IMG/VR virus record: IMGVR_UViG_3300037067_004891
Span: 256,001-320,000 of that record
Source of the DNA: a virus
Lineage: Duplodnaviria; Caudoviricetes
DNA: 64,000 nt
Reading direction: 5' to 3' (one strand)
Below, piece after piece: positions 3,091-59,153 of this stretch. The translations under genes were made by a program, and so were the position numbers. Position 1 is the first letter of the stretch, and each line of letters opens with the position of its first letter. The notes below the pieces were generated by a model. The model was not told where the DNA came from, did no database searches, and worked only from the letters and a program-made list of their open reading frames with translations.

Positions 3091-3114
3091 AAAGGTCAGA
3101 GAAATCTGACTTTT
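3091..3114. terminator. Bidirectional intrinsic terminator
   Basis: aaaggtcaga-gaaa-tctgactttt between convergent genes. Confidence 0.7.
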
Positions 3115-3946
3115 AATTTTTAAAATATTTAAAACGTTTTATATATTTTAAATTTTCTGTTATCACATTAGCGATATGATTTATTTTCAAATCATCTTTT
3201 AACATATATAAAACATTCTGCAATTCTTTAAAATTTTCATCTGTATACCCCCATGTACCTATAAAATCTTTAAAAGTATTTATTTTATCCATATCATTTT
3301 CATCTATCATATCTGGGTCTGGGTCATCCAAAAAATCTTTATAATCATAACTTATATCATAAAAATAGTTTAAGTCACTACAAATAGCAGTAATAACACC
3401 ATATAAAGCAATTTTCTTATTGAAAAGATAATGTCTGACTGTTTGTAGTAACCACTCAGCAAAATTATCCGTTATTGTAATATTTAAATCATCATCAATG
3501 GTTTTTTGAATATCTTCTATTGTTTTTAGTTCTGGGTTCTTTGAAATTTCTTTTATATTTTTATTCAAATATTCTTTAGTTTTCCAAACTTCATCCGTAT
3601 CCAAATATAGGTCACCATCTGACTCTGTTTCACCAGCACCATTAATTAATAAACATCTTGGGTCAACGACCATCGTTAAAACTTCACCATTCCCCTTTTC
3701 ATCTCTTTGTCCAGCTCTTATAGCTGCATAATTCCAAACATTATCAAATTTACTATTAAAATCACCTTCATCAGTATGGAAAAAGAATCCATCCTTAAAG
3801 TGTTTAGTTGATTCTATTTGTTTAGCAGCAAACTTACTCGTACCATGATACACAATAATATTATTCTTACTATCCTTTTGAAATGTAAAACCATGACCTC
3901 TTGCTCTATCCGTTAAACTTTCTAATCCTTCTTGTTTCGATATCAT
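3113..3946 (-). CDS. ADP-ribosyltransferase-like (YHGT) domain protein
   Basis: IIVYHGTS, FFFHT, NYAA; C-terminal ENLKYIKRFKYF leader-like motif. Confidence 0.55.
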   Translation of the reverse strand: MISKQEGLESLTDRARGHGFTFQKDSKNNIIVYHGTSKFAAKQIESTKHFKDGFFFHTDEGDFNSKFDNVWNYAAIRAGQRDEKGNGEVLTMVVDPRCLLINGAGETESDGDLYLDTDEVWKTKEYLNKNIKEISKNPELKTIEDIQKTIDDDLNITITDNFAEWLLQTVRHYLFNKKIALYGVITAICSDLNYFYDISYDYKDFLDDPDPDMIDENDMDKINTFKDFIGTWGYTDENFKELQNVLYMLKDDLKINHIANVITENLKYIKRFKYFKN

Positions 3947-5019
3947 TTTTTTCTTGGATATTTTTCATAAACACTAATCATATAAGGTGGGATATCACCT
4001 TTAACTCTGAAACCGTGTCCATATAATGCACTTTCAGCTAAGGAATCCCCAACACTTATACCAGCATGTAATATTTTATTATATAATTGGTCTTTATCAG
4101 CTTGTAATAAATAAACTGGAATTACGACTTCATAAACAACGATATCATCATAAGGATAAGCTATATCCCCAAAAGTTTTAGCCATATCAGGAAAAATAGA
4201 TAAATAAACATATCCTGTCTGAGATTGAAAAGATTTTTTAGTTTTATTTTTAGTTGTTAATAGTCCATCTTTCAATATATTTATATTAGCAGATGTTCCG
4301 TGATACAATTTCACTGGTTTACTATTTGGTTGATATTGATTTTTATGTGGACTTATTATTTTATTAAATTCTTTCAACATTTCGGGTGTTGGGTCTGAAT
4401 AAAATAAATCAGGATATTCCTTTAATAAATCGATAGGATTACTCATATCCACATTATAATTAGAATGAACATAGGCTTCGAATTTTTTAAAAGTGCCTCT
4501 TTTCATATTTATTACCATCCAATCATTAATCTTAGAATAATCATACACATCATTCTCATTGAACCTTTTATCGTTAAATGTTAAAGCTATAATAACAAAT
4601 GATTGAGGGTGTTCCCATAAATATACCGTGTGTTTAATTACATACTCTACGAATTCATCTGGGATAATTGGAATACCATCTTTAGATAAAATATCTTTAT
4701 ACTTTTCTAATATTTCAGATAACATTTTTTCATTATACATCCATATAGAACCTGACGAAACATTAGATTCTGATTCAGATTTAATTTTGAATATAATATC
4801 ATTTTCTTTAGAATATTTCACTAAATTATCTATAACCTCATCTGGGTTGCCATATCTATTATTTATATAATTAATAGGTAAATATCCCAGAGCCTTTGTT
4901 TTACCAACATTCAGTAAATCACCAAGGACGATAAAATCTTCTGGTTTAAAATTATAATCGGTTGTTATTTTTTTCGAAGTTGGATTCTTAAAATCCTCGA
5001 ATAAAATTAAATATTTCAT
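3943..5019 (-). CDS. Two-domain putative virion protein with a C-terminal ART-like (Tpt1/PARP-like) domain
   Basis: Leader MKYLILFEDF; internal TFKKFE; KLYHGTS..ILKDGL..YVYLS..GDIPP. Confidence 0.65.
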   Translation of the reverse strand: MKYLILFEDFKNPTSKKITTDYNFKPEDFIVLGDLLNVGKTKALGYLPINYINNRYGNPDEVIDNLVKYSKENDIIFKIKSESESNVSSGSIWMYNEKMLSEILEKYKDILSKDGIPIIPDEFVEYVIKHTVYLWEHPQSFVIIALTFNDKRFNENDVYDYSKINDWMVINMKRGTFKKFEAYVHSNYNVDMSNPIDLLKEYPDLFYSDPTPEMLKEFNKIISPHKNQYQPNSKPVKLYHGTSANINILKDGLLTTKNKTKKSFQSQTGYVYLSIFPDMAKTFGDIAYPYDDIVVYEVVIPVYLLQADKDQLYNKILHAGISVGDSLAESALYGHGFRVKGDIPPYMISVYEKYPRKK

Positions 5020-5339
5020 CCTGTACTTTCTATAAATTTTATATCCTTTTCAGGTATTTCTTCTGGTGAAGCATAACGTTTACTTGTTGAACGATGTGTA
5101 TAAACAAAAAAACCATCATCGTCCGCACCCAACCCAACACCGTCCATTCTCGAAACTAAACCCTGTGGTTTTTTAAGACCCCTAACTATTCCATTTTTCA
5201 CTTTAGAACCAGTATTCATTAGAGGTTCTATTAATTCTTTCATTTTATCAGATATTTTTCTACTCAGGTGTAATGAATTTTTATTTTCTTGATATCTATT
5301 TCGTTTTTCTAATAAATTAAAAGCTTCAAACGAATACAT
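5016..5339 (-). CDS. Hypothetical protein with leader motif (MYSFEAFNLLE)
   Basis: ORF in operon; overlaps the next start. Confidence 0.6.
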   Translation of the reverse strand: MYSFEAFNLLEKRNRYQENKNSLHLSRKISDKMKELIEPLMNTGSKVKNGIVRGLKKPQGLVSRMDGVGLGADDDGFFVYTHRSTSKRYASPEEIPEKDIKFIESTG

Positions 5340-5348
5340 TTTATATTT

Positions 5349-5639
5349 TTATTTTTTATTTATAATATAATGATAAATATATTCAGCACAAAATTCAACT
5401 CTCTTATTTTCAGATTCAAACTCACCAATAATTTCTTTAGCTTCATCATTTGTTGTTAACAACGTTTTAACATTTTTCATAATGACATCAACTCTGGTAA
5501 AATCTTTCTCAGATACACCATTTTCTCTCATTATTATATCAATCAATGAACTACTAACAGCATCAATATAAGTCCATGTACGATTAAAAATAGATGCCAA
5601 ATTTTCATTTATAAATATTTCAAATTTCTTTACTATCAT
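5349..5639 (-). CDS. Hypothetical protein with leader motif (MIVKKFEIFINE)
   Basis: ORF; leader motif. Confidence 0.6.
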   Translation of the reverse strand: MIVKKFEIFINENLASIFNRTWTYIDAVSSSLIDIIMRENGVSEKDFTRVDVIMKNVKTLLTTNDEAKEIIGEFESENKRVEFCAEYIYHYIINKK

Positions 5640-5982: not shown

Positions 5983-6093
5983 ATTTTTATTTTTATTTTT
6001 AATTATATATTAAATTAAAATGAATTGTTTTATTTTTTAATATATAAGGTAAATGTTTCTATTTTAATATATATTAAAAACTAAAATATAATA

Positions 6094-8337
6094 ATGGCTA
6101 TTACTAAACGTATAAAACTTGATATTAATGTATTACTTGAATGGACATATAATGATAATAATATAAAAAATGAAAATTATTCTATACTATCCAATTTAAA
6201 TCTGGGTAATAGAGATTATGCATCATTTCTTCCACTTAATGATGAAGACAACTCGTTATTTTGTGTTGATAACATCATTAAAAAATATTCACAATTTGAT
6301 ACAGAAAAATTTAATTTTTTAAAAAAACAAAATTATTCAGGAAACCCAATACCACACGATAAAATAAAATTGTATTTTCCAATAAATTTTGTTTTTAACA
6401 CATATAGAGGGTTTTATCTTAATATATTTACATTAGATTATCCAAACGAAAACATGCATTCTGTAAGTAAATTTTATTATGATATAGCACTTGATGATAA
6501 TATTGGTAAAATAGATTTAGAAACACCATTCGTTTACGATGAAAAAATTTGGGGTAAAAGTATAACGTTAGAAATTCCATCTATTTATCATATAGCAAAA
6601 GATAGAATTATAAACGACACTCAAAATTCTGTAATACCCAACACTATAAATTATAATTTAACAAACGGAACAGGTTTAAGTCAATCTGCACCAATTTTTA
6701 TTGATTTTTCTTATATAGTAACAGGAGAAATTGTACTCAACACTCTTTATTATAGATTAGGTGATTTATACGAAACATCTGTACCACAACAAACAGAATA
6801 TCAATCATTGGGTGTTGATATTGTAGAATCAACACAGGGAGATTTTTTTGAAATATACGGTATTTATAAAGGTACGAATGAAAATATGGATAATTTCATT
6901 GAAGATTTAGAATCAAAAGGAAAAAGAATTGAATTGGAATATAGTATAACATTATTTGAAGAAAACATACAAAGTGGATATCCACAAGTGTTTAAAGTAA
7001 CTGAAAATTTTTCGCAAAAACTTTTATATAGACCAATCATAAGATATTCAAATACAACCGCAGCTATTGATGTTCAAATGAATGTTATAGATTTAGTTAA
7101 TAATAGTCAAATAGAACGATATGCTTCAATTGGATTGACAAAAAATATATTTAAATATGGTAAAATATTATCCAGAATAAATTTAGATAATACAGTTTTA
7201 AAACCGAAAATTTATAAAGCCAAACCAGAAAACATTATAATAAACAGTGTTGTTGCTGATAATACTGGAAATATAACAAAAGTACCATACCCAGTTCTAT
7301 ATGATAAATATAAATTATTGGTTAATAGTACAGTATCTATAAACAACGAATATAAATCTAATGGATTATTAAATATTATTATAACTCCGTTTGATAATAT
7401 TGTTAAATTTACATTAGCAAAGGCTGTTGATAATTTAACAGGTGAACATGTTCCATATGATTTATTTTCTATTTCTAATAATGCTAAATTAAAATTAGTT
7501 TTTAAATCAGATACGAAAACTATAGAAATGGATTATTATGCACAATCTACTGATAATGATTTTAAAAATGGTGATATTGTATATAAGATAAAGGAAAGTG
7601 ATATATCAGCTATAAAAAGCATATATGATAAGAAATTTAAAAATTTTTATTTAATACTTTATGCCAATGATACCAAAACACTTTTATATTCTGGAAAATA
7701 TGATTTTTATGAAAACATAAAATTTGTTGATATAAAAAATACACAAAAGACAACAGTAACATCTGATGGTACAGGTATCGGTGTTGATTTATACAAAAAA
7801 CAATTAGATGCTACAAACAAGAAATTCAATCAAACGATTAATTTGTTAAATCAAAAAATAAAAAAATTAGAATTAGATAAAAAAGTAACTCAAGATTCTC
7901 AGTTTAATAAAGTTAATATACCATTAACTTCTTCCAATAACACAATAAAAAATAATAAAAATTATTTCAACTTAATAATATTTATTAAAAAGAAAGCTTC
8001 CAAAATAAATTTCGAAACATTTTTGAAATCACTTGGCATAAAAACATGGATATATAATGATTATGTTTATTTTTTATCTTCTATACATATATTAACAGTA
8101 AGCACAATTGAAAAGAAAACTGAATATATTACTAAAGTAATTCGAATTGATATATATGACGGACAAAATCAAAGTGTAAAAACAAACACAACAATAACAA
8201 CAAACCAAGTGACGACTGCTATAAGTGAAAAGTTTAACAAATTAAACAAAACACAAAGTGTTAAAAATTCAGCAACAACTGTAAAATATTTGGTTGATGG
8301 AAAAACCACAATTTTAAAATTAAAAGATATTCTTTAA
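6094..8337 (+). CDS. Large hypothetical protein, probably virion structural
   Basis: 747-aa beta-rich ORF with TAATATATA upstream; no family recognised. Confidence 0.5.
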   Translation: MAITKRIKLDINVLLEWTYNDNNIKNENYSILSNLNLGNRDYASFLPLNDEDNSLFCVDNIIKKYSQFDTEKFNFLKKQNYSGNPIPHDKIKLYFPINFVFNTYRGFYLNIFTLDYPNENMHSVSKFYYDIALDDNIGKIDLETPFVYDEKIWGKSITLEIPSIYHIAKDRIINDTQNSVIPNTINYNLTNGTGLSQSAPIFIDFSYIVTGEIVLNTLYYRLGDLYETSVPQQTEYQSLGVDIVESTQGDFFEIYGIYKGTNENMDNFIEDLESKGKRIELEYSITLFEENIQSGYPQVFKVTENFSQKLLYRPIIRYSNTTAAIDVQMNVIDLVNNSQIERYASIGLTKNIFKYGKILSRINLDNTVLKPKIYKAKPENIIINSVVADNTGNITKVPYPVLYDKYKLLVNSTVSINNEYKSNGLLNIIITPFDNIVKFTLAKAVDNLTGEHVPYDLFSISNNAKLKLVFKSDTKTIEMDYYAQSTDNDFKNGDIVYKIKESDISAIKSIYDKKFKNFYLILYANDTKTLLYSGKYDFYENIKFVDIKNTQKTTVTSDGTGIGVDLYKKQLDATNKKFNQTINLLNQKIKKLELDKKVTQDSQFNKVNIPLTSSNNTIKNNKNYFNLIIFIKKKASKINFETFLKSLGIKTWIYNDYVYFLSSIHILTVSTIEKKTEYITKVIRIDIYDGQNQSVKTNTTITTNQVTTAISEKFNKLNKTQSVKNSATTVKYLVDGKTTILKLKDIL

Positions 8338-8353: not shown

Positions 8354-8965
8354 ATGAGATTATCATCACAAAATAACCAATTTGTTTTTTTATTTCCATC
8401 TGACTTCATTCCGACCGAAACAGAAGAACGAATGTTATTATTCATGGAGAAAAATTTTATACCATATGATAGTGTATTAGACTATATTAATAGTACAATA
8501 AAAGAAATAACATTTCCATCTATACAATTTAATACTGTTCAACAGCGATTAAAAAGAGGTAAAGAAATTCATTTTAAAGATGCCACTTCAATATTTGATA
8601 ATTTTACAAGAGAACTGGATATGACATTCAGAAGTGTAGACTCCCACATAAACTATTTTATGTTATTAGAAATAGTAACTGAATATATTTTAAATAATGA
8701 TAAAGAATATATTCCAATATTAAATTTAGATATAATAGATAAATATGGTGACGTTATATACACTATTGTATTTAGAGAAGTATTATTAAAATCATTATCT
8801 GAAAACAGATTGAGCTATAATGTCATGGATATTTCAGAAAAACCATTCACTATAACCTTCTTATATAACTTTATAGATATTTATTGGAAAGTTGGTGACC
8901 AATCTACTAAAGTAGAAAAGAATATTTTTGATATACCTATTAAAGAAACTAAATATAGAATATAA
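8354..8965 (+). CDS. Putative tail tube-like / structural protein
   Basis: About 200 aa with IKEITFPSIQF and RELDMTFR segments reminiscent of tube-fold proteins; weak. Confidence 0.35.
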   Translation: MRLSSQNNQFVFLFPSDFIPTETEERMLLFMEKNFIPYDSVLDYINSTIKEITFPSIQFNTVQQRLKRGKEIHFKDATSIFDNFTRELDMTFRSVDSHINYFMLLEIVTEYILNNDKEYIPILNLDIIDKYGDVIYTIVFREVLLKSLSENRLSYNVMDISEKPFTITFLYNFIDIYWKVGDQSTKVEKNIFDIPIKETKYRI

Positions 8966-9045: not shown

Positions 9046-10251
9046 ATGAAACAGATGTTTATAGAAAATGAAAAAAACAATCAAAAAATTGAAACCATTG
9101 ATGATGTTTTTGATTGGGAAACTTACACAAACGAAAATAATCACATTTTCAATTTTAAATTAAAAGATCAAATTAAATTAACAAAAGATCAAGAGTATAA
9201 ATTATCATTGTATGAAGGATTTAATTCGTTTAATAAAAAAGTCGAAGTAGGAATGGTAGTGTCAGGTCAAATTAAATATATGACCAAAAGAGAAATGCAA
9301 ATCGATTTTAATTATAAGGACTTAATATATATCGAAAATAAATTATCAGATTGGTCAACACTATCTACCTTTAAAGAGGGTGATGTTGTTGAAGTTTTAA
9401 TAAAAGAAGTTCAAAGTAAACCAACTTATATGATTAGGGGTTCTATTATGGATTTACTTAGAATGAATGTTGATAATAAAATCAAAACATATTTCGAAGA
9501 TAATACTCCTATTATAGCAACAGTTAACGAAATTATACCAGCAGGTTATATGTTAACATTAGTAATTGATAAAATTAAAGTGGGTGCATTTATGCCAAAT
9601 ACTTTAGCTGATGTGAATAAAATGCATGATCCAAATATATTACTTGGTAAACAAATTGAAGTGTTATTAGAAACCACACAACAAGAAAAAGGTGTTTATG
9701 TTGTGAGTAGAAAGAAATATCTTCGTACACTAATACCAGAAAAGATGAATAAATTAAGTTTTGAAAAATCTTACGAAGGGGTTGTTACTGGTACTACACC
9801 ATTTGGTGTTTTTGTACAATTTGAAGATTGTTTAACAGGGATGATACATAAAGCAAATGTGAATCCTGAATGGATAGAAAAAATTCAGGAAATTAAACCT
9901 GGTACAATAATGGTTTTTTATATTAAAGAAATTACAAAAAACAAAAAAATCATTTTAACTCAAACTTTAGAAGATTCTCTTTGGGATACCATTAAAATTG
10001 GGATGATACTTGACGGTGAGGTTGTTGCTATGAAACCATTCGGTGCGTTGGTTAAATTAGATTATGAAACAATTGGATTAATTCAAATAAATTATTTAAA
10101 TAAATATAAAAAATATCTAAATCAAGGAGACAAAATATGTGTTAAAATCGTCAATATTTTAAAAGATGATAGAAAAATTTATTTATCACTGTATGATAAA
10201 ACTCGGATAAATAATACGGAATTTAACACAGAAAACAAAACAGAAAATTGA
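9046..10251 (+). CDS. Ribosomal protein S1-like multi-S1-domain RNA-binding protein
   Basis: Tandem S1 repeats: GVVTGTTPFGVFVQF..TGMIH and GEVVAMKPFGALVKL..RKIYLS. Confidence 0.85.
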   Translation: MKQMFIENEKNNQKIETIDDVFDWETYTNENNHIFNFKLKDQIKLTKDQEYKLSLYEGFNSFNKKVEVGMVVSGQIKYMTKREMQIDFNYKDLIYIENKLSDWSTLSTFKEGDVVEVLIKEVQSKPTYMIRGSIMDLLRMNVDNKIKTYFEDNTPIIATVNEIIPAGYMLTLVIDKIKVGAFMPNTLADVNKMHDPNILLGKQIEVLLETTQQEKGVYVVSRKKYLRTLIPEKMNKLSFEKSYEGVVTGTTPFGVFVQFEDCLTGMIHKANVNPEWIEKIQEIKPGTIMVFYIKEITKNKKIILTQTLEDSLWDTIKIGMILDGEVVAMKPFGALVKLDYETIGLIQINYLNKYKKYLNQGDKICVKIVNILKDDRKIYLSLYDKTRINNTEFNTENKTEN

Positions 10252-13907: not shown

Positions 13908-13967
13908 TTAAACAAACATTTTATTTTTATTAAAATAATATATAAAGAAAAAATAAAATGTTTTTAA

Positions 13968-15338
13968 ATGAAACACATTTCAAATTTTAATAATTTTCAC
14001 ATAATAAATGAATCTATGTTTGGAAAATTTAATGGTAATATTCAATATACCGATTGGTCGGATTTCAAAGAGAAATTGAAACACACAATCACAACAGATT
14101 TTAATTCAATTGAAGAAATGATTTCTTTAATGGGTATGAATATTGACCGCTATAACAAAATAAAAGAAAATATGATATGGAATTGGAAAGATTCTGTATC
14201 AAAAAGTTTGTTACACTCAGTCGCTGAACTAAATTATAAAATACCAAAAAAAGGAACAAATATATTTCCTGATTTATTAACACAAACAAGATTTTTAATT
14301 CTATCCGCAAATGGATTTCAATCCAGAAACGTATTTGGAGATTATAATTCCACAAGTGGTCTTGGAATATTAAGTAGTATGAGAGATTTGGAAAAAATAA
14401 AAAACACTGACCCAAAACAAACCGAGCGAGATAGATTTTCAAATAAAGAAATAATGAAACGATATGTATCAATAGGTGGGACAGACGCTTTTACTGTTAG
14501 GTCAGAAGAAGCAATTAAAAAGGTTAATAATATACTTCAATATATTTGGTTATATGTTTTTTACAATCACTATGTCTTGAAAAAAGGTTTAAAAGAAAAA
14601 ACTCATAAATTACCAAAATATCTTTATAGGGGAATCCGAGGAACTATGTGGCAAAAAGCTGAAAAGGTTATCGGTAAGGAATGGTCAGAATTATCTAAAA
14701 CACATTCAGATTTAAAAGTGAAACATAATAAAGCCATGCAAGAAAAATATGATTTACTTTTTGATTATATACTTAAAAATAGTATACATAAATTGACTGA
14801 TGGTAAATATCTTTCTTTCACTGCCAGTATGCCTATCGCAAAATATTTTTCAAATAAAGACGGATTTGTTCTTCGAGTTGACACTTCAAAAGTAAATATA
14901 ATAACATCGGAACTGACCGATGAATTATTCGACCAAGAAGATTATGTAAGTGGTAGAAAAGAAAGAGAGTATATTGTTGTAATACCTGAGAATTATAAAT
15001 TTCAAAAAGATGATATCATAGTAACTGATGAAGATTATCTCATAGCTACTAACAACCCATTAAGTGTTGGTGCATTTACACACGACACTAAAGAAGCTTT
15101 TTATGATATGTTAGATGATAAAGGAGTTAAATGGAATGTTCACGCATATTATGTTTGGTCATCAAATGATAAGGGTGGGGTGATATATGGTGTAAAAAAA
15201 GATGGTGAGGAAGATTATAACTGGGCAGATGGTAGAAACAATATTAAGAAAAAATACAATTTTGACCCATTACCAACAGAAAACAATTTAGATAAAATAA
15301 CAAATTTTAAGGTAAATGATGAGAAAAAAAGATGGTAA
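13968..15338 (+). CDS. R-S-E type ADP-ribosyltransferase (Alt/VIP2-like), putatively virion-packaged
   Basis: KYLYRG, YLSFTAS, KEREYIV; leader MKHISNFNNFHIINES; TAATATATA at 13946. Confidence 0.7.
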   Translation: MKHISNFNNFHIINESMFGKFNGNIQYTDWSDFKEKLKHTITTDFNSIEEMISLMGMNIDRYNKIKENMIWNWKDSVSKSLLHSVAELNYKIPKKGTNIFPDLLTQTRFLILSANGFQSRNVFGDYNSTSGLGILSSMRDLEKIKNTDPKQTERDRFSNKEIMKRYVSIGGTDAFTVRSEEAIKKVNNILQYIWLYVFYNHYVLKKGLKEKTHKLPKYLYRGIRGTMWQKAEKVIGKEWSELSKTHSDLKVKHNKAMQEKYDLLFDYILKNSIHKLTDGKYLSFTASMPIAKYFSNKDGFVLRVDTSKVNIITSELTDELFDQEDYVSGRKEREYIVVIPENYKFQKDDIIVTDEDYLIATNNPLSVGAFTHDTKEAFYDMLDDKGVKWNVHAYYVWSSNDKGGVIYGVKKDGEEDYNWADGRNNIKKKYNFDPLPTENNLDKITNFKVNDEKKRW

Positions 15339-15343
15339 TATAA

Positions 15344-17896
15344 ATGATAAGAACCGAAGTATTAAATAAAGAAAAACTATCTAATATCATATATAGTTAT
15401 GGTGAACCGTATGACTTTGATAAGAAAATAAAATATTTTCATTATTTTGATATTCGGTCATCACATTTGGACTATGATCCCAATGAAAAATATAAAGCCA
15501 GAACATATTTTGTCACCTTATTTGATGATGATGATATCATCGGATTAGCTAAATTACAAGAAAATCCATATAATCAACAAGGTTTATTTTGGATACAGTA
15601 CATTTCCATCGATGATAAACACCAAGGAATGAGATATTCAAAATATATTATTGATAGAATGATAAAATTTTGCAAAGAAAATAAATTTAAATTGAAAACA
15701 TCTGGTTATTCAACAAAAGGGTGGGAACGTCTAAGGGAATATCTTCATTTATCTGCGGGTGCAAATGATGTGGAATTAATTGATACCAAAGAAAAACCAG
15801 AATACGAAAACCACACTTCAATAGACACATTAGTTAATACAAAAGTCATAGATTTTAATAAAAAACCGTTGATTGTATATCATGGAACAAATAATAAATT
15901 CGATATTTTCGATATAAATATGATAAACACAAATGAGAAGAGTGGTGATTATATTGGTTCGGGAATATATTTCACACGTTATAAAGACACTGCATTAAAA
16001 TACGCAAAACAGGCGGTGAAAAAAGGTGGGGGTTTAGTAAATATTATATCGGCATATTTAAATATCGAACATCCATTAATTATAAATAACACATCAGATG
16101 CTCAAAAATTGAGAGATTTATTTGGCGGGGAATTTAATTATTTTTCTATTTTGGATGACAATCCAAATCTTATTAAAGATGAATTAATAAAATTGGGTTA
16201 CGATGGTTTAATAGACAATATGTATAATCAATATGCAGTATTTGAACCAAGTCAAATTAAAATAATTGATAATTCTGTATCATTACAAAATGAAAATATT
16301 GTTAGTTTTTCAAATTTCATTGTAAATGAAGAACATGACTACACCAAAGAATCCATTTTAAAATTTATAAAAGATAGAAATCTTTATTTAATGGATGGAA
16401 AATATTTGGAATTATATCATGGAACAGACCCAGCATCATATAGAAAAATAGAAAAATCTGGTAAATTAAAATCTGGTACATGGTTCGGGATAGATTATGA
16501 AACATCAAGAAGATATGGTTTAATGAGATTACACAGAGGTGAACCAGTGGTAATGAAGATTTATGTTGATATTGATTCCTTATATATATCAAGTGAATAT
16601 TTTATTGCTAAACACGATTTAAAGATGAACTTGATGTATGGTTCTGGTTCTAATGTTTATGAAAATAAAAATCCAAATATAAAATGCTATATTTGCGAGA
16701 ATAATAATACAAAAGAAGAAATGTTCATACCTGAAGATATATTAGAGTTTCACGATTTATTTACTCAGGCTGGTAAAAAACTTTTTTTAGTTGGGGGTTG
16801 TATCCGTGATTATATAATGGGTAAAACACCACATGATTATGATTTAGTAACTGATGCATCACCAGATGAGACTAAACAAATTTTAAAAAATTACAGAACA
16901 AATTTACAGGGCGCACATTTTGGTGTAATAAGAGTGTATACCGAAGATGAACCAAAGGGATATGAAGTAGCTTCTTACAGGCGTGATATCTCAAAAGGAC
17001 GCTCAAATAAAGGCGATGATCAAAAAGTTGAAATCGGTTCTCATATCACTATTAAAGATGATGTTTTAAGAAGGGACATAACTCAGAATGCGTTATTTTA
17101 TGATATTGGTAAAAAAGAAATAATAGATTTAGTTGGTGGTATAGAAGATATTAAAAATGGTATTATACGAGCTGTCGGTAATCCAATGGAACGATTCAAT
17201 GAAGACCGTCTTAGAATTTTGAGAGTTTTTCGTTTTTCAGCCCGTTCACGTTTTAAAATTGATGATGAAACAGCGAATGCTATAAAAAAGGACAACCGTC
17301 TGAACGGTTTATCACCTGAAGAAGATGTTTCCCAAGAAAGAATACTGGAAGAAATTTTTAAAATATGGGAATATGCATCCGAAAAAAATGATTTACCTGC
17401 TTGGAAACTATATCTCAAATATCTGACTGAGTTTAAAATGTGGAATCAGATGTTTAAAAACATGCTTATTAATGAGGATGTGATTAACATTGATAGTTTA
17501 GATTTAATTCAGATGTATACATATTTATTTCTGGATAATACTCCAGATACTGAATTTAATAAACGTTTGATTAGAACATTTAAATTTTCATCGGATAATG
17601 CTAATATAATTTGTTTTCTATTAACATTTTATAATAATATCAATGATGTCGATAAGGTGTTTGATATGAAAAAGAAACAAAACCAATTTGATATTGACCC
17701 GAATATTATAAAAGAATTTTCTGATATACATAAACTGGATAAAAAATTTACTGATAAATTCATTGAATATGATTTAACAGTATCAGGACAAGAATTAATG
17801 GATTCTGGACTAAAAGGAAATGAAATTGGTATAGAACAAAGGAAGCAAGAAAAAGAAATTTTTCAAAATATGATTAACGAATCTTTTGATTTTTGA
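15344..17896 (+). CDS. cca: Polyvalent fusion: GNAT + two ART-like domains + CCA-adding enzyme (class II tRNA nucleotidyltransferase)
   Basis: YISIDDKHQGMRY; LIVYHGT..GIYFT..GYDGL..VFEPSQIK; LYHGT; LVGGCIRD, DYDLVT, RRDITQNAL, EDRLRILR. Confidence 0.85.
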   Translation: MIRTEVLNKEKLSNIIYSYGEPYDFDKKIKYFHYFDIRSSHLDYDPNEKYKARTYFVTLFDDDDIIGLAKLQENPYNQQGLFWIQYISIDDKHQGMRYSKYIIDRMIKFCKENKFKLKTSGYSTKGWERLREYLHLSAGANDVELIDTKEKPEYENHTSIDTLVNTKVIDFNKKPLIVYHGTNNKFDIFDINMINTNEKSGDYIGSGIYFTRYKDTALKYAKQAVKKGGGLVNIISAYLNIEHPLIINNTSDAQKLRDLFGGEFNYFSILDDNPNLIKDELIKLGYDGLIDNMYNQYAVFEPSQIKIIDNSVSLQNENIVSFSNFIVNEEHDYTKESILKFIKDRNLYLMDGKYLELYHGTDPASYRKIEKSGKLKSGTWFGIDYETSRRYGLMRLHRGEPVVMKIYVDIDSLYISSEYFIAKHDLKMNLMYGSGSNVYENKNPNIKCYICENNNTKEEMFIPEDILEFHDLFTQAGKKLFLVGGCIRDYIMGKTPHDYDLVTDASPDETKQILKNYRTNLQGAHFGVIRVYTEDEPKGYEVASYRRDISKGRSNKGDDQKVEIGSHITIKDDVLRRDITQNALFYDIGKKEIIDLVGGIEDIKNGIIRAVGNPMERFNEDRLRILRVFRFSARSRFKIDDETANAIKKDNRLNGLSPEEDVSQERILEEIFKIWEYASEKNDLPAWKLYLKYLTEFKMWNQMFKNMLINEDVINIDSLDLIQMYTYLFLDNTPDTEFNKRLIRTFKFSSDNANIICFLLTFYNNINDVDKVFDMKKKQNQFDIDPNIIKEFSDIHKLDKKFTDKFIEYDLTVSGQELMDSGLKGNEIGIEQRKQEKEIFQNMINESFDF

Positions 17897-19285
17897 ACTA
17901 CCACTAAGCTAAAGACTTAGTAGTTTCCTGCGCTGACCTCGTAACCTCAGTCATATCTCGCAAGGCGTGAATTTCGGTCGTCCCAACCGTATTTTTAATT
18001 TTTGCAAAAGCAAATTTCTTTATATTATTTGCTGCATTGATATCTCTATCATGTTTAGTGTTACATTTAATACAAGTCCATTCTCTATCTTTTAGAGTTA
18101 ATTTATTATTGATATGACCACAAGAACACATCTTAGAACTTGGTTCAAATGTTCCAATTCTCAATATATTACATCCGTACCACTCAGCTTTATAAGTTAG
18201 CATTCTAACAAATTCTGACCAACTTACATCAGATATTGATTGAGCTAAATTATGATTCTTTATCATATTAGACACACTAAGAGTTTCTAAACATATAGTC
18301 TCATTATTATTTATTAAATTAGTTGACAATTTATGTAAGAAATCAACCCTTTTGTTTGAAATTTTTTCATGAGTCGATGATATCACTTTAATAGATTTCT
18401 TTATATTGATACTACCTTTTAATTTTTTAGAATGTTTCTTCTGTCTAATCTTCAACCTTCTCAATGACTCTTTTAAATACTTAGGATTGTCAATTACCAA
18501 ACAATCTGAAGTAACTAAAAATGATTTAATACCTAAATCAATACCAATAGCTTGTTTTTCACTTATCGGTGGCTTTACAGGTATTATATCATTATTTTGC
18601 ACTAAAATAGAAATATAATATTTATTATTTATTTTTGATATAGTAGAATTCTTTGTTATTCCTTCAAACCTCCTATCAATGATTATTTTAATCCCAGTTT
18701 TGAATTTTGGTAAATAAACCTTAGATTCTTCAAAATCAACAAATGTATTTGCTGGTATGCCAAAACTGTTTTTAGGATTTTTCTTTGATTTGAAATTAGG
18801 CTTTCCAATTGAATTTAATCTTTCTAAATTAATTTCTAAACCTTTAGACTTTCTACTGAAAATATATTGTTTTTTCTTCTTTTCAAGAACACCATTTTTA
18901 TTATCATGAAAAAACTTATTGAAAGCATTATCAAGATTCTCTAAACTATATTGTAATGATTGACTATTCACTTCTTTTAACCACTTTGTTTCTTCTTGCT
19001 TCTTTAATAAAGGTAAATCTTTTTGAATATCAAATCTGGATAGTGAGATGTTTTCTTCTTGGTATACTCTATTCTTTTTGTCAAGAGCATAATTATACAC
19101 CCACCTTACACAACCAAAATGTTTGTTAATCAAAATTTCTTGTTCTTGATTTGGATATATTCTATATTTATATGCTCTTAACACTTTTATTATAGTTATA
19201 TTTTTGGAAAAAGTTTACTATATTTTTATTTTTAATCAAAAATCATCTCACGAAACTAAAGACTTCGGAATTTTTGAAAATTTTA
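17893..19285 (-). mobile_element. IS200/IS605-family tnpB-only element (IS1341-like)
   Basis: Right-end hairpin actaagtctttagcttagt then ggtagttca; degenerate left-end hairpin at ~19249-19267; left boundary approximate. Confidence 0.8.
17904..19184 (-). CDS. tnpB: TnpB RNA-guided endonuclease
   Basis: AYKYRIYP HTH; GIDLG, ICLETL and HDRDINAA RuvC triad; Zn finger. Confidence 0.95.
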   Translation of the reverse strand: MLRAYKYRIYPNQEQEILINKHFGCVRWVYNYALDKKNRVYQEENISLSRFDIQKDLPLLKKQEETKWLKEVNSQSLQYSLENLDNAFNKFFHDNKNGVLEKKKKQYIFSRKSKGLEINLERLNSIGKPNFKSKKNPKNSFGIPANTFVDFEESKVYLPKFKTGIKIIIDRRFEGITKNSTISKINNKYYISILVQNNDIIPVKPPISEKQAIGIDLGIKSFLVTSDCLVIDNPKYLKESLRRLKIRQKKHSKKLKGSINIKKSIKVISSTHEKISNKRVDFLHKLSTNLINNNETICLETLSVSNMIKNHNLAQSISDVSWSEFVRMLTYKAEWYGCNILRIGTFEPSSKMCSCGHINNKLTLKDREWTCIKCNTKHDRDINAANNIKKFAFAKIKNTVGTTEIHALRDMTEVTRSAQETTKSLA

Positions 19286-43082: not shown

Positions 43083-44243
43083 TTAGCGGTTTCCTACTTC
43101 GCAGACTTCGTAACCTCCGTCTCCATAGGTGTACTCGCCAGTTCCTGACGAGAGAAGGTTTAAACCTTCTGTTTCAATATTTTTAGCAGCATTTAAATCT
43201 CTATTATGTTTCTGACCACATATCGGACATTCCCATTGTCTTATATTTAATGGTAAGTCTTGTAATATATGTTTACACTTATGACATGTTTTTGATGATG
43301 GAAACCATCTGCTTATCTTTACCAGTTGCTTATCATTCCAGTCAGATTTATATTTTAAATATGTTAAAAATGCCCCCCAAGACACATCGGATATTGATTT
43401 ACTTAGTTTATCATTTTTTAACATACCTTTAATATTCAAATCTTCACAACAAATAATATCGTAATGACTGATTAAACGGGTACTTACTTTATGCAGCATA
43501 TCATTCCGAGAATTGACTATCTTCTCATGAATTCTTGCTACTTTAATTCTTTCTTTATTTTTATTATTACTTCCCTTTTTTTTCCTACTTAAATGTTGTT
43601 GCTCTCTCTTTAATTTCTTTTGATATTTAATTGTGTATTTATGATTTTCAAATTTATTATCATCTGATGTTATTACAAAATCTTTTAAACCCAAATCAAT
43701 ACCTACCGACTTCCCTGTCTTTTCTTTCGGTTGATATTCAACTTCACAAAGAAAGCTTATGTAATATTTACCTACTGGTGTTTTTGAAATGGTGCAGTTT
43801 CTTATATTTGTTATTTCAACGTTCTTCTGATTTACTTTAATACCTTCTTTAAATTTGGGTAAGAATACCTTTTTATCTATTAGTTCAATGTGTTGAGGGA
43901 TATGGAACGAATTCTTATCTTTTCTGGATTTGAATCTTGGAAACTGGGCTAACTTTTTAAAGAAATTAATATATGCTGTATCAAGGTGTCTTAAAGAATG
44001 TTGTAATGATTGACTATTAACTTCTTTTAGCCAAATATATTCTTCTTTCTTTTTAAGTTCAGTTAAATATTCTGCTTGTTTATAATAATTTAAAGTCTTA
44101 TTACCTTTTAAATATTCATCTTTTCTCTGGTTTAAAAAATAATTAAAAATGAATCTATTACAACCAAAATGTTTATTCAACAAAATTTCTTGTTGTTTGG
44201 TTGGTTTTAATTCAAATTTATATGTCTTTTTTATAACCTTCAT
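43083..44243 (-). CDS. tnpB: TnpB RNA-guided endonuclease
   Basis: GIDLG, CCEDL, HNRDLNAA; CHKC and CPIC Zn finger. Confidence 0.95.
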   Translation of the reverse strand: MKVIKKTYKFELKPTKQQEILLNKHFGCNRFIFNYFLNQRKDEYLKGNKTLNYYKQAEYLTELKKKEEYIWLKEVNSQSLQHSLRHLDTAYINFFKKLAQFPRFKSRKDKNSFHIPQHIELIDKKVFLPKFKEGIKVNQKNVEITNIRNCTISKTPVGKYYISFLCEVEYQPKEKTGKSVGIDLGLKDFVITSDDNKFENHKYTIKYQKKLKREQQHLSRKKKGSNNKNKERIKVARIHEKIVNSRNDMLHKVSTRLISHYDIICCEDLNIKGMLKNDKLSKSISDVSWGAFLTYLKYKSDWNDKQLVKISRWFPSSKTCHKCKHILQDLPLNIRQWECPICGQKHNRDLNAAKNIETEGLNLLSSGTGEYTYGDGGYEVCEVGNR

Positions 44244-45171: not shown

Positions 45172-46242
45172 TTAAAAACGTTGGGTAGATTGTGTAATAT
45201 CTTCTTTAAGTTTTATATAAAAAACAATTTCTTTTTGATTAATATCTACGGAGTAGTCAACTCTATAATTCCAATTGTATTTGAGTATCCAATTTTCCAA
45301 GGTTGTTAAAAATTGAAAGTGTGGTAAATTCGGATTTATAAAATCTTCATAATCGAATTTTTTATAACATATTTTATTGTTGATTATATAAACAGGTTTT
45401 TCTTTTAGAAATAATTTAAATTCCTTTCGAACTTTACACAAAAATGTTAAATTATTAAGATTGATTGTTTGTAAAACACTATATATAGGAATTATAGAAT
45501 TCATATTTAAAGATTTTAAAAATTTGGTTGTTACTTTAAACTGACCAGTTTGTATTAATTTGTGGTCGTGATTAACATAAAAACCATATTTTAAAATAAA
45601 AGATTCTATCGAAAAATAAAGTGATAAATTGGAAATGTTATTATTTGAAATTAATGTATTATAAGTAATTATAAGAGATTCTTTGTCTTTTAATTCTTCG
45701 TTTAATAATATGTAGTTATTAATATTTATCGTGTGAAAAAATAAATTATAATCACCAGTGTTCAGATATAATTTATCTTTTTGTTTAATAAAGTTAATAC
45801 TGAATTCTGATAAAATTCTTAAAAGTATAACAAAAGCTCGTTCACCATCGAACAATACTTTATTTTCTTTGAGTAATGTCGAAAATAATATTATTTTGCG
45901 TTCTGTTTCTAATTCCACATCATTTATCTGGTCTACGGTATAAAAGTTATTTTTAAATTTTTTGTAATATTTATCTAATAATATATTCACACATTCGTCA
46001 TATGGCTTAGTAGCAACACAACATTTTTCGACAATATCTTTAATACCTTGAACATCGTTATATTTATTAAGAAAAAAAGCATCATTAAAATCATTAATTT
46101 CATCTTTTGGTATGTTATACGGTTCACCCATTATTATATATTTTAATTCGTTTTGAACACCATCAAAATAATATTGATACATGGGATCAAAAATTGGACG
46201 TACACCTTTTAAATCTTTTTTTCTATTTAAATCTGTTAACAT
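45172..46242 (-). CDS. Hypothetical protein
   Basis: 356-aa ORF. Confidence 0.55.
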   Translation of the reverse strand: MLTDLNRKKDLKGVRPIFDPMYQYYFDGVQNELKYIIMGEPYNIPKDEINDFNDAFFLNKYNDVQGIKDIVEKCCVATKPYDECVNILLDKYYKKFKNNFYTVDQINDVELETERKIILFSTLLKENKVLFDGERAFVILLRILSEFSINFIKQKDKLYLNTGDYNLFFHTININNYILLNEELKDKESLIITYNTLISNNNISNLSLYFSIESFILKYGFYVNHDHKLIQTGQFKVTTKFLKSLNMNSIIPIYSVLQTINLNNLTFLCKVRKEFKLFLKEKPVYIINNKICYKKFDYEDFINPNLPHFQFLTTLENWILKYNWNYRVDYSVDINQKEIVFYIKLKEDITQSTQRF

Positions 46243-47428
46243 ATTTTTTAATTTTTAATATTTTACTTTCTTCCATCTGGACAGGTTCTTCTTCCTGAAC
46301 TTCTTCTTCAGTTTCCATTTCATCTTTCATTTCTTGATAATAATATGGGTCAAAATTATAGTCATTAAAAGATAACATATCAACATTATTGAAGAAATCT
46401 ACCATTTCAAGAAATTTTTTAAATTCTTCTTTTAATGAGTAGTCATTAAAATCATTATATTCATTTGATGAATTATAATATATTTTAGTTATAAATTTAG
46501 GCATAATTACACCACCATAACCAAATTTTCTATATGTAGAACCTATATACTTATTTTTTAGATATTTTAAAACTTCATTTTTATCGGATATATAATGTGG
46601 TTCTATTTTAGAATATATTTCATGGTCACCTTTATCACCTATATATGTTTTGAAAAAATCATAATCAAAATCTATTTTAGATATATCAATACCTGATGTA
46701 TCAATTTCAATAATAACAGGTGGCATATTATTAATATTTCCAGCTTTTCCAGCATGAAACATCGCACTTGTTTTTTCACCCGTTAAAAATGAATAATTTT
46801 TATGTTTTATATTTTTAAAGTTTGAGGGTGAAATATTGGGACGTAATCCAAGTTTTAATATATTTTCTAAATATTTAACTGATGTTCCATGATAAACATA
46901 TTTTGGTATTTTTCGAAACTGTACTTCTTTAGTAAAACTATCTATAAGATTATCGATATAAACTCTTTTTTCTATTGTTTCTGTATTATTATAACCAACT
47001 GTTTCATACATTTCTAAAGTATCAACACCTAATTTATTTTTCAATTCTTTAATAACATCAATAAAAAATTTTGAACTGTTAATATCTTGTGTGAACTCAT
47101 CATATACATCTATTTTTAGTGTATCTGGTGTACTTGTTTCATAATGAAATATCACAACGTTAGGATAATTTTCTTGTAAATCTCTTATTAAATTTGACAC
47201 TTCTTCATTTTTAATATCTTCAGTTTCCCCTTTATATGTGCCAAGTTCTTTTAAAATATCAGTATATATTCTTATAATACCTTTTGTGTCATAATCATCA
47301 ACTATATAAATATATTTTCTAAATGCTATAATGGTGCATTCTTCCGATTCTTTTATACTATTAAAATCGGGGTGTAATATTACTTCATTTAAAAAATCGT
47401 TGAATTTTATAATCTCCATTGATGGCAT
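46223..47428 (-). CDS. ART-like (Tpt1/PARP-like) domain protein with leader
   Basis: MEIIKFNDFLNE; YVYHGTS..ILKLGLRP, SFLT, PVIIEID, GVIMPKFI. Confidence 0.7.
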   Translation of the reverse strand: MPSMEIIKFNDFLNEVILHPDFNSIKESEECTIIAFRKYIYIVDDYDTKGIIRIYTDILKELGTYKGETEDIKNEEVSNLIRDLQENYPNVVIFHYETSTPDTLKIDVYDEFTQDINSSKFFIDVIKELKNKLGVDTLEMYETVGYNNTETIEKRVYIDNLIDSFTKEVQFRKIPKYVYHGTSVKYLENILKLGLRPNISPSNFKNIKHKNYSFLTGEKTSAMFHAGKAGNINNMPPVIIEIDTSGIDISKIDFDYDFFKTYIGDKGDHEIYSKIEPHYISDKNEVLKYLKNKYIGSTYRKFGYGGVIMPKFITKIYYNSSNEYNDFNDYSLKEEFKKFLEMVDFFNNVDMLSFNDYNFDPYYYQEMKDEMETEEEVQEEEPVQMEESKILKIKKYVNRFK

Positions 47429-57005: not shown

Positions 57006-57023
57006 AAGAAATTGAATTATAAG

Positions 57024-57054: not shown

Positions 57055-57083
57055 ATAATATATAACAACAAAAAATATCTGAA

Positions 57084-57479
57084 ATGAAAAAACATATACT
57101 TAAAATAAACGAGTTTAAAGAACACACTGACCAACATTTGACTGAACAGGAATTACTTGAAATGTCAAATTATCGTGGTGAGAATTTTGGTATAGAAGGT
57201 AATGTTGTTTTATGGATTGGTTCTGTTTTATCATCACAACATCCAGATGGTAATAGAATAAAAGTGAGTAATTTACCAAATAAGGGAACAAGGGATACTT
57301 TTACTATCACTATACCTAAATTAGAAGTAATCGGGAAAGTAAACACAAAACACATTACTACTAAAAAATTGAACAATATTTTTGAATTCATTAAATTAAA
57401 CATGGATTTGATTATCGCTTTTTGTCAAGAAGATATTGACGGTTATGATTTTGCTCAAAACGTTAAAAAATTAGAGTAA
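57084..57479 (+). CDS. Hypothetical protein with leader-like N-terminus
   Basis: MKKHILKINEF..LLEMSN; TAATATATA at 57056. Confidence 0.6.
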   Translation: MKKHILKINEFKEHTDQHLTEQELLEMSNYRGENFGIEGNVVLWIGSVLSSQHPDGNRIKVSNLPNKGTRDTFTITIPKLEVIGKVNTKHITTKKLNNIFEFIKLNMDLIIAFCQEDIDGYDFAQNVKKLE

Positions 57480-57566
57480 AGCGGTAATATTAACTACTTT
57501 ATTTATGAAGATGGTCACATGACAACCGAAACTGCTGTTGAAGCTGGTGATGTTATCAACTTCTAA
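57480..57566 (+). pseudogene. Orphan diverged copy of the lipoprotein 3' end
   Basis: SGNINYFIYEDGHMTTETAVEAGDVINF* versus SGTTNYFIYEDGHMETKTATDAGDVIEF* (56919-57005). Confidence 0.85.
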
Positions 57567-57618
57567 AAAGAATATTATAAGAATGTGAAAGGCTGTTCGA
57601 ATGGACAGCTTTTTTGTT

Positions 57619-58023
57619 TTATATTAATCCCAGATTACCATAGTGTGCTTTCAATAATGATTTAATATAGGGTTTGAAATACTTTAAACCATTATTCACT
57701 TCCACTAAAACATAAGACAACATATCAATATCATTGCATTTTATATCTTCAATAAAAATATCAAAGTCATCTAAATTGTTGAATTTTAACAATAACGAGA
57801 AGCTATAACCATTTATAAAAGATAACCCAATTCTGACATTAATTAGTATGGAATTATCATACGTTTTATCAATAATAAAACATTTGGGTTTGTAAATATT
57901 GCCTATTCGTGATATTACATAGTTGTTAAATTGTTCTTCGATTAAAATGTGTAAATTATTCATTTTACATGGTTTGGTAAGTGAATATAGTTTTTTAATT
58001 AATAAAAAAATTATTTTTTTCAT
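57619..58023 (-). CDS. Hypothetical protein
   Basis: ORF. Confidence 0.45.
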   Translation of the reverse strand: MKKIIFLLIKKLYSLTKPCKMNNLHILIEEQFNNYVISRIGNIYKPKCFIIDKTYDNSILINVRIGLSFINGYSFSLLLKFNNLDDFDIFIEDIKCNDIDMLSYVLVEVNNGLKYFKPYIKSLLKAHYGNLGLI

Positions 58024-58223
58024 GACAAGAATATTTTTTCTTGTATATATTATATCCAGTTAGATCATCTGAATATTATTCAATAATAAAAACAGAAGAT
58101 TATTGTTTATATTATCAATCAAAAAAGCCATCCCGAAAGTCGGAATGACTTTAATGTTTTTAACGGCACTTTATATTTTAAGTGTCTTAAAATTGAATCT
58201 CCTTTGTTTTAATATATAATAAT

Positions 58224-59153
58224 ATGAAACTTAAAAATTATAATATTTTTTTAATTGAGGGGCGAGGTATATCTGATATAATTAAAAAATATTCTAAAAT
58301 AATAATTTCCTCTTTTAAAAAAGGTAATTTACAAAATCAATACGATTTTGATTATGAACCGTTGCCGTTATTAGATTTAAAAGTGATGTTTAAAGAATCA
58401 AACAAGTATTACGGATTATTTGATCCTACTTTTTCAAATTTGTTAAATGATAAATTATATAATATTATAATATCTATTAATTTTGTTAAAAATAATATTG
58501 ATTTAATTAAATTAGAAGGTATTATAGTTCACGAGCTAACTCACGTTAAAGAATATTTTGAAATAGAAAAGAAAAACATAACTTTAAAAGTGAAAATATT
58601 CCCAACTCACTTAGATATAAAATTTATAAACAAATCGGAAATAGCAGTTTATACATCATTTAATGAATTCTATAATTTATTATATCTATCATTAGATGAT
58701 GAAATAAATGCGAGAACAGCACAGATATACCCTTATTTATATTCATTGAAAATAAAAGATGAAAATGTTTTATTTGATAAGATAAAAGATACTGATAATT
58801 GGAAATATATCCAACTGTTAAAAAAATTTAATTATGACAAATTTATTCAGGATAATATTGATTCTATCGGGTTGAAAAGTTTTATAAAAATAACAAACGA
58901 AATAATAGAAAAATTTAGAGATAAAGATTTAAATAGAAAAACGAAATTGTTATATTTCTTAGAACCAGTGAATAACTTAATAGAATTAAATAAATTATAT
59001 AAAAATTGGTTTAAATATTTTTATAAAAAAGGCGATTCTTGTATTGAAAAATATAAATATTTAATCAAAGAAGTTATAGAAGATTTAAACGGTAATAGAC
59101 CTTGGAATGAAAATTATCGATGCGATGACCAAGATGTATATTTAAATATCTAA
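58224..59153 (+). CDS. Zincin-like metallopeptidase with leader
   Basis: MKLKNYNIFLIE; IVHELTH; DEINA. Confidence 0.65.
   Translation: MKLKNYNIFLIEGRGISDIIKKYSKIIISSFKKGNLQNQYDFDYEPLPLLDLKVMFKESNKYYGLFDPTFSNLLNDKLYNIIISINFVKNNIDLIKLEGIIVHELTHVKEYFEIEKKNITLKVKIFPTHLDIKFINKSEIAVYTSFNEFYNLLYLSLDDEINARTAQIYPYLYSLKIKDENVLFDKIKDTDNWKYIQLLKKFNYDKFIQDNIDSIGLKSFIKITNEIIEKFRDKDLNRKTKLLYFLEPVNNLIELNKLYKNWFKYFYKKGDSCIEKYKYLIKEVIEDLNGNRPWNENYRCDDQDVYLNI

Follow-up and report, generated by a model that had tools for sequence, protein, structure and literature searches.

The stretch of phage DNA analysed here, 64,000 nucleotides (nt) long and called the window throughout, spans bases 256,001–320,000 of the linear IMG/VR record G000 (421,673 bp, 25.7% G+C, 59% complete according to CheckV), and a set of its otherwise unrelated open reading frames (ORFs) begins with a common leader of about ten residues. 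The shared N-terminal tag in this genome is real, and it is probably the form that the capsid targeting sequence (CTS) of phage T4 takes in a megaphage lineage, which would load unrelated enzymes into the head, probably for ejection with the DNA. A first-pass annotation of the window had proposed a leader of this type, and the proposal is supported in silico by the use of the same four positions, the recovery of the T4 internal proteins, the head genes of relatives, a link to a promoter-like motif and unrelated cargo that includes ADP-ribosyltransferase (ART) domains of the ART-PolyVal family.

ORF calling over the whole record returned 538 ORFs, among them those for a UvsX-like recombinase, a DnaB-like helicase and a T4 gp6-like baseplate wedge protein. 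A UvsX search with the G000 query retrieved two near relatives at 85–87% amino acid identity, G001 (98% complete at 675,678 bp) and G002, which measures 639,979 bp and has direct terminal repeats; because these close relatives have such lengths, we assign the window to a fragment of a T4-like megaphage whose full genome would measure about 640–680 kb. The features of the window that bear on the tag are given below; scores in bits are those of the position matrix described in the next section, and TAATATATA is a promoter-like motif.

3943–5019, minus strand: tagged ORF, 358 amino acids (aa), MKYLILFEDFKNP; 8.0 bits; no Pfam match
5016–5339, minus strand: ORF of 107 aa with a variant tag, MYSFEAFNLLE, Glu one position late; below the matrix threshold
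5349–5639, minus strand: tagged ORF, 96 aa, MIVKKFEIFINENL; 24.4 bits; G002 ortholog MKVKTFEIFINENI
6004–6012, minus strand: promoter-like TAATATATA ahead of the operon 5982–3943
13936–13944, plus strand: promoter-like TAATATATA, 23 nt ahead of the 13968 start
13968–15338, plus strand: tagged ORF, 456 aa, MKHISNFNNFHIINES, one-residue-insertion variant; the G002 ortholog keeps the motif, MKRIHSFNDFNSINE; no Pfam match
15344–17896, plus strand: polyvalent protein, 850 aa, with GNAT, ART-PolyVal and PolyA_pol/CCA-type nucleotidyltransferase domains (Pfam)
16295–16336, plus strand: internal tag-like joint NIVSFSNFIVNEEH inside the 850-aa polyvalent protein; G002 joint VLKFNEFNINES
19283–19828, minus strand: tagged ORF, 181 aa, MKHINNFHQFRINEN; HELTH at residue 93; weak C-type lysozyme match
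19838–20380, minus strand: tagged ORF, 180 aa, MKTKFKDFLFEKR; 18.3 bits; ortholog tag identical
20370–20900, minus strand: tagged ORF, 176 aa, MRLKLFEQFNKKWY; no Glu past the tag; 16.8 bits
20890–21384, minus strand: tagged ORF, 164 aa, MKTFSQFINENN, closest to the consensus; 27.1 bits; exact tag also in G002
21414–21422, minus strand: promoter-like TAATATATA ahead of the four-gene tagged operon 21384–19283
32329–32757, plus strand: tagged ORF, 142 aa, MKTLKNFIKFNES; TAATATATA at 32296
36196–36564, plus strand: tagged ORF, 122 aa, MKHLKLFEEFQIHN; 17.7 bits; TAATATATA at 36168
36568–36801, plus strand: tagged ORF, 77 aa, MRKYIKTFESLTDD, second gene of the operon; 7.8 bits
42227–43057, plus strand: weak candidate, 276 aa, MTYIHNWKSFNEE; below the matrix threshold; TAATATATA at 42199
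46223–47428, minus strand: tagged ORF, 401 aa, (MPS)MEIIKFNDFLNEV; 20.4 bits; faint Tpt1/KptA-like match; TAATATATA at 47439
57084–57479, plus strand: weak candidate, 131 aa, MKKHILKINEFKEH; below the matrix threshold; TAATATATA at 57056
58224–59153, plus strand: tagged ORF, 309 aa, MKLKNYNIFLIEGR; HELTH at residue 103; 16.0 bits; TAATATATA at 58210

A shared N-terminal tag on unrelated proteins

All 15 N-termini quoted in the first-pass annotation are encoded where it had placed them, strand included; for the genes starting at 20900, 21384 and 47419 the quoted ATG lies downstream of the longest possible start. The claim that all 15 share one leader held for most of them: 11 score 7–27 bits with the whole-genome matrix and 13968 is a conserved variant with a one-residue insertion, but 42227 and 57084 are weak and 5339 has its Glu one position late. 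Expectation-maximization motif searches became fixed on Met1 in one case and gave a diluted motif in another, and we used regular-expression tests and an anchored position matrix instead. The matrix yielded the consensus [ILVM]-K-[KNT]-[FY]-x-x-[FY]-[LI]-N-E, beginning 0–6 residues past Met1, with the aromatic pair beginning at residue 4 to 10 and hence at a variable distance from Met1. In it, F or Y occupies positions 0 and +3 in 96–98% of instances (approximately 3.1–3.2 bits each), and [LI] at +4 and Glu at +6 occur in 64% and 63%, respectively.

Regular-expression forms of the tag are enriched 10–20-fold in the first 13 residues relative to protein interiors or shuffled N-termini; the form [FYW]xx[FYW][ILVMFRH]xE, for example, occurs in 29 N-termini against 2.2 and 2.5 expected from the interior and shuffled controls. 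With the anchored matrix, approximately 45 of the 538 ORFs score above 9–11 bits, where about one or fewer is expected. A hold-out matrix built from 13 N-termini of the window agreed, recovering 38 of the 464 genes outside it at more than 8 bits, against 2.3 expected from shuffled N-termini and 0.7 from interior segments. The first-pass annotation had named an equal frequency in composition-shuffled N-termini as grounds for giving up the idea; since the motifs are 10–20 times rarer there, a composition artefact was rejected. The tagged set comprises about 45–58 of the 538 ORFs (11% for the widest set of 58, which includes 14 variants added by hand and from which one suspected false positive was dropped). 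That excluded ORF, at 120568–122334, has an FKNFKSYG start that looks like that of a Rad50/SbcC-type ATPase. Genes for topoisomerase II, a DinG-like helicase and a NADAR protein, identified by Pfam, all lack the tag, as had been noted at first pass; PhoH, also named there, was not located.

The proteins behind the tag are unrelated to one another, as had been proposed: trimming the tag from 59 tagged proteins left 58 BLAST clusters, by which an origin as a paralog family was rejected. Across 30 G000–G002 ortholog pairs (mean identity 74%), identity reaches 97% at both aromatic positions and 83% for Glu at +6, compared with about 60% at flanking positions, and position −3 holds similar residues in every pair. 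At the conserved tag positions, synonymous codons are used as in the proteome at large, so that conservation does not concern the DNA as such; together with the F/Y and L/I exchanges and the variable spacing from Met1, this argues for selection at the level of the protein and not of the DNA.

Tagged genes lie behind a promoter-like motif

Nearly all tagged genes, or their operons, had been said to sit behind a late motif, and TAATATATA indeed lies 5–29 nt upstream of all 15 quoted genes or of the first gene of their operon. Genome-wide, the 80 nt ahead of the start contain the motif for 22 of 59 tagged genes versus 65 of 479 others (p = 4e-5), and restricting the count to genes preceded by a gap of 40 nt or more gives 18 of 26 tagged genes versus 55 of 272 others (p = 5e-7); both tests bear out an association of tag and motif. 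Because TAATATATA is also found ahead of fibre-like genes in G000 and of the portal and capsid genes in G002, besides the tagged genes, we predict that it is most likely a late promoter.

Correspondence to the T4 capsid targeting sequence

The T4 CTS reads MKTYQEFIAE (PMC8442874), and suppressor mutagenesis of internal protein III (IPIII) assigned targeting mainly to its residues 4 and 7 and processing to residues 8 and 10 (PMC9026906). The T4 head protease gp21 cuts after L/I-x-E, and Asp in place of the processing Glu blocks processing (PMC9026906). In the megaphage tag, the conserved positions 0, +3, +4 and +6 are the counterparts of CTS residues 4, 7, 8 and 10, respectively, and both systems place a tag of approximately ten residues, K-x-[FY]-x-x-F-[LI]-x-E, ahead of proteins that are otherwise unrelated. 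As a positive control, the matrix derived from G000 was applied to T4 bases 50,001–150,000, where all 329 ORFs of 40 aa or more were scored. The three top-scoring ORFs encoded the internal proteins IPI (10.3 bits), IPII (9.5 bits) and IPIII (9.2 bits), followed by an 8-bit gap to the next ORF at 1.2 bits; Alt, gp67, gp68 and gp21–24 did not match the matrix.

There are also differences. The G000 record of 422 kb carries 45–58 tagged ORFs, where T4 has three and a T4-like phage of 215 kb has two; the offset of the tag from Met1 varies by 0–6 residues; the residue at P2 is Asn, whereas T4 has Ala; the cargo is acidic to neutral and enzymatic, whereas the T4 internal proteins are small, basic and DNA-bound; and the megaphage lineage additionally has internal copies at domain joints and a protease-fused scaffold built as a motif array. 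We therefore regard the tag as probably belonging to a known system, in a strongly enlarged variant form. The internal proteins of T-even phages are themselves diverse, with only the CTS in common, and the CTS has been considered a possible general loading route for T4-like phages (PMC9026906).

Head genes and scaffold repeats of close relatives

No capsid, portal, protease or terminase gene was detected in G000, presumably because the record is a 59% fragment, and the head machinery was therefore inferred from relatives; the head module of the window's phage probably lies in the missing part. The complete close relatives G001 and G002 both encode a gp21-type (S77) protease, a gp23-type capsid protein, a portal and scaffold repeats, so that the megaphage lineage resembles T4 in its protease and head. 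In G002, the portal matches phrog_213 (E 4.5e-64), the 804-aa head maturation protease matches phrog_207 (E 1.8e-25), and the 544-aa capsid protein matches Pfam Gp23 at 88 bits and solved T4 gp23 chains at a phmmer E of 5e-8. A phmmer search of the G002 protease domain against PDB sequences gave no match. Aligned by hhalign to T4 gp21 and a standard T4-like protease, a protease-domain profile built from G002, G001 and G005 (a 252-kb phage) reached 98.4% probability (E 1e-14), placing GEFDHP on gp21 GELNHP (His85) and SSRAAG on gp21 VSSRG (Ser140), which we take to be the catalytic His and Ser of gp21.

The G002 protease polypeptide continues into a scaffold of 13 tandem 14-residue repeats, each containing [FY]-x-x-Y-[LIV]-A-E, and the same scaffold repeats occur in G005. 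Ten heptads of this array exceed the core-matrix threshold, against 0.95 expected from proteome interior of equal length. The tag thus resembles one unit of this array.

Several further observations were made in these head regions. In the G002 segment 620001–639979 (L033), the portal gene is seemingly split, with an 84-aa ORF behind the late motif and a 537-aa ORF approximately 200 nt on (L033 1294–3365), and the head module is crowded by homing-endonuclease-like ORFs (L033 3528–4415 and 8669–12424); introns or inteins in this module are possible. On the minus strand at L033 12676–13741, four small ORFs end in a common K-I/L-x-x-I/L-F-G/P-D/E-D/E-L, and one of them has a fragmentary gp23-like match, so that this locus may be a broken or split vertex-protein gene. 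In the G005 segment 156001–168000 (L212), a tagged 119-aa ORF, MKSVLSYEEYLFEK, lies at 3054–3413 directly behind the capsid gene, and a 214-aa ORF at 331–975 has an internal YEEFVNE copy.

Cargo domains, fusions and internal copies

Pfam identified three ART-PolyVal proteins (best E 6.8e-26), one SprT-like protein, one NUDIX protein, DUF7222 and DUF3990 among the tagged proteins; most proteins of the set had no Pfam match, and many are small. The tag sits ahead of complete domains, with ART-PolyVal beginning at residue 26 and the SprT-like domain at residue 22 of the respective proteins, and the ADP-ribosyltransferases predicted at first pass are thus present as ART-PolyVal domains. The 176-aa ORF at 20370–20900 has an ART-PolyVal-like domain from residue 11, at an E of 2.3e-5 that falls under the family cut-off. 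The metallopeptidases read into the window do contain an HExxH motif, which is the sole basis for the assignment. A lysozyme had also been claimed, at 19283–19828; the match to C-type lysozyme exists but is below threshold, and the ORF carries an HExxH motif. A homolog search with the SprT-like cargo protein retrieved four close relatives only, and ESM Atlas searches with two cargo proteins gave no usable lead (best scores 0.75–0.86). The ESM Atlas gene call for 13968–15338 begins at residue 17, right behind the tag; because this automatic call starts after the tag, annotation pipelines may drop such tags.

Several G000 cargo proteins match G002 genes solely behind the tag, or as halves each with its own tag. 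The C-terminal half of the 358-aa protein at 3943–5019 matches a separate G002 gene carrying its own tag, and the G000 ORF at 81075–82301 is a fusion of two G002 genes in which the second tag is kept internally (LYSNFINEDL at residue 226). The 850-aa protein at 15344–17896 is polyvalent in the sense of combining GNAT, ART-PolyVal (E 1.1e-26) and PolyA_pol (E 5.7e-32) domains, and most tagged proteins have a single domain. It contains VSFSNFIVNEE at residue 322 (the NIVSFSNFIVNEEH joint); its G002 ortholog, shorter by 167 aa at 683 aa, has LKFNEFNINES at residue 160 (the VLKFNEFNINES joint). The two orthologs differ by a whole ART module ahead of the joint, present in G000, and both end in MINESFDF. 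From these comparisons, the cargo set changes between close relatives, with modules swapped directly behind the tags.

Distribution of the tag

A DNA pattern for M-K-x-F-x-x-F-I-N-E matched at least 120 IMG/VR loci, versus 15 for a codon-permuted control. Among the matches listed, 114 of 124 open ORFs of at least 50 aa, ahead of varied proteins and on contigs of 22–48% G+C. Seventeen large host records are found among these matches, with S77 in eight and Gp23 in eight; three of the four host records that are at least 90% complete have both the S77 protease and Gp23, and five of the eight large records with neither are rated just 10–19% complete. Tag numbers differ among genomes: depending on threshold, 45–61 of 943 ORFs are tagged in G002, compared with about 58 of 538 in G000, whereas G015, the complete 215-kb T4-like phage, has two among 270 ORFs, one of them between portal and protease. 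Literature searches with tag strings, and with the CTS in combination with huge or jumbo phages, returned no prior description of the tag or its expansion.

Other features of the genome

In the G000 segment 200001–220000 (L011), the DnaB-like helicase is encoded by two adjoining ORFs of 247 and 361 aa (L011 2051–5724), followed by a 253-aa ORF and an HNH endonuclease gene. At 9046–10251 the window encodes a protein of 401 aa whose C-terminal part is an S1 RNA-binding domain (E 9e-17); its gene adjoins two large ORFs, 6094–8337 and 8354–8965, behind the late motif. Starts of the form M-L/K-x-x-K-x-R-I/L-Y-P-...-Q, resembling those of IS200/IS605 TnpB-type proteins, occur at 43083–44243 of the window and at G000 45959–47152, 144557–145402, 188680–189978 and 414279–414692; such a likeness would imply several copies within one phage genome. 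CxxxCxxC radical-SAM-like motifs are present near the N-termini of two ORFs (window 24301–25086 and G000 142181–143020), the latter flanked by two tag-bearing genes.

Discussion

We propose that the tag forms a short N-terminal amphipathic helix, of which the two aromatics, three residues apart, would dock the protein onto the prohead scaffolding core, namely the 13-copy [FY]-x-x-Y-[LIV]-A-E array fused to the protease. The [LI]-x-Glu behind the aromatics would be the cut site of the gp21-type protease, which would remove the tag during head maturation. The tagged genes would be transcribed alongside the head genes from the TAATATATA late-type promoters, and the mature cargo would stay in the head and probably be ejected into the host with the DNA. 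In this way ADP-ribosyltransferases, SprT-like and HExxH peptidase-like proteins, a NUDIX enzyme and many proteins without an assigned function would be delivered, and at least two longer proteins with an internal motif at a domain joint may be cut into separate modules. Docking, cleavage, retention and injection of the cargo are steps that we infer; docking followed by release through cleavage is suggested because the T4 CTS has affinity for the scaffolding core, the contact partner not being named (PMC9026906, PMC3012670), and because T4 gp22 is cut to fragments at L/I-x-E (PMC9026906).

Several points weigh against this proposal. The evidence is the sequence of an uncultured phage, and Pfam models for Peptidase_S77, Gp23, Portal_T4 and Terminase_6C (PF03420, PF07068, PF07230, PF17289) found no match anywhere in G000. 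Glu stands exactly at +6 in only 29 of the 58 members of the wider tagged set. The remaining tags resemble that of T4 IPI, where the cut lies further downstream, or may escape cutting; because Asp in place of the Glu blocks processing in T4, many tags may target without being cut. The median isoelectric point (pI) of the cargo is 5.9, compared with 6.9 for other proteins, and a pI above 8.5 is reached by just 21%; T4 internal proteins being basic, the cargo is by this measure not of the small, highly basic, DNA-associated IPI–III type and has the tag alone in common with it. The P2 residue is Asn in the tags versus Ala in the scaffold repeats. The AlphaFold model of the SprT-like protein, from four sequences, has a low confidence (mean predicted local distance difference test score (pLDDT) 56), with the tag helix of residues 2–12 at pLDDT 27–36. 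The 850-aa polyvalent protein has no N-terminal tag, and interior motif copies across the proteome are only about twofold over expectation, for which reason we regard the internal joints as a minor theme.

A bolder version of the proposal, to which we give appreciably less than even credence, holds that the tag is one 14-residue repeat of the scaffold: the cargo would slot into the coiled coil of the protease–scaffold protein and be freed by the cleavage that also takes the scaffold apart. In that case the motif would work anywhere in a chain, so that single enzymes as well as internally cut chains could be loaded, and about a tenth of the proteome would be delivered, far beyond the T4 internal proteins and Alt.

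Alternatively, the tag might bind the prohead core and be cut on proteins that serve assembly as scaffold accessories, fillers or size determinants and are degraded or expelled in the manner of T4 gp22, gp67 and gp68. The position of one of the two tagged G015 ORFs inside the head module, between portal and protease, the likeness of the tag to the scaffold's own repeat, and the many small cargo proteins without an assigned function would fit such a role, but the cargo holds complete enzyme domains (ART-PolyVal, SprT-like, NUDIX), delivery into the host is predicted or established for such ARTs and peptidases (PMC5512222; T4 Alt), 58 unrelated assembly factors are implausible, and the cargo set differs among close relatives. 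We consider this role improbable. The chances are slimmer still that the tag is recognized by other machinery, for instance a modifying enzyme, a chaperone or a system for sorting within the cell, and resembles the T4 CTS through convergence. The two G000 ORFs with radical-SAM-like motifs offer a candidate enzyme, but tagged genes occupy more than 30 separate places in the genome and are not next to one enzyme, the matrix specifically recovers the T4 internal proteins, the motif recurs 13 times in the protease–scaffold protein, and elsewhere, among the matches listed, the tag co-occurs with S77 and Gp23 genes. That the shared start is a DNA-level by-product with a functionless peptide (a recombining cassette of promoter, ribosome-binding site and start, or an AT-rich initiation optimum) would agree with the link to TAATATATA and with a G+C content at which Lys, Asn, Phe and Ile codons are plentiful, but is largely refuted by the scarcity of matches in shuffled N-termini and interiors, by the residue exchanges, variable spacing and ordinary synonymous codons, and by the same tag on contigs of 22–48% G+C, among the matches listed, and at internal domain joints.

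Loading through a T4-type targeting tag, the reading that we prefer, can be compared with other cases of protein delivery by phages. The ADP-ribosyltransferase Alt of T4 is packaged, cut by gp21 at both ends and injected. Here, too, ARTs are encoded by a T4-type phage and carry a putative cargo tag, and the 850-aa polyvalent protein ends in an [LI]-N-E site (MINESFDF), which recalls the C-terminal processing of Alt (PMC9026906); the N-terminus of Alt, by contrast, scores −19.9 bits, and the ARTs described here are of the ART-PolyVal family, which is distinct from that of Alt. For the polyvalent proteins found in phages and conjugative elements, delivery with the DNA has been predicted (Iyer et al. 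2017, PMC5512222). A polyvalent-type ART, a zincin/SprT-type peptidase, GNAT and NUDIX are found in both sets, but the domains are mostly single here, each behind its own tag, and the fused ones carry the tag motif at their joints; our literature search found no link between polyvalent proteins and the CTS. In phiKZ-like giant phages, dozens of head proteins are cut after Glu by a diverged gp21 homolog (the proteases phiKZ gp175 and SPN3US gp245), and a large mass of protein is likewise packaged with the DNA (PMC9026906). These phages form a separate lineage, their cleavage motif is S/A-x-E, and the review gives no short common N-terminal targeting tag for them.

The resemblance between tag and scaffold repeat offers a testable idea of targeting, namely that the tag mimics the repeat, and existing gene annotations may hide further tags. 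Short portable tags of this kind already load foreign proteins into T4 heads, and natural tag variants are of interest for the same purpose. If the tag works as in T4, it would provide a listing, from sequence only, of what an uncultured giant phage brings into its host in the first seconds of infection: dozens of delivered proteins, with ADP-ribosyltransferases, peptidase-like proteins and a NUDIX enzyme among them. The internal-protein system of T4 would then be a small case of a widespread and greatly expandable way of loading cargo, with the tag at no fewer than 120 IMG/VR loci.

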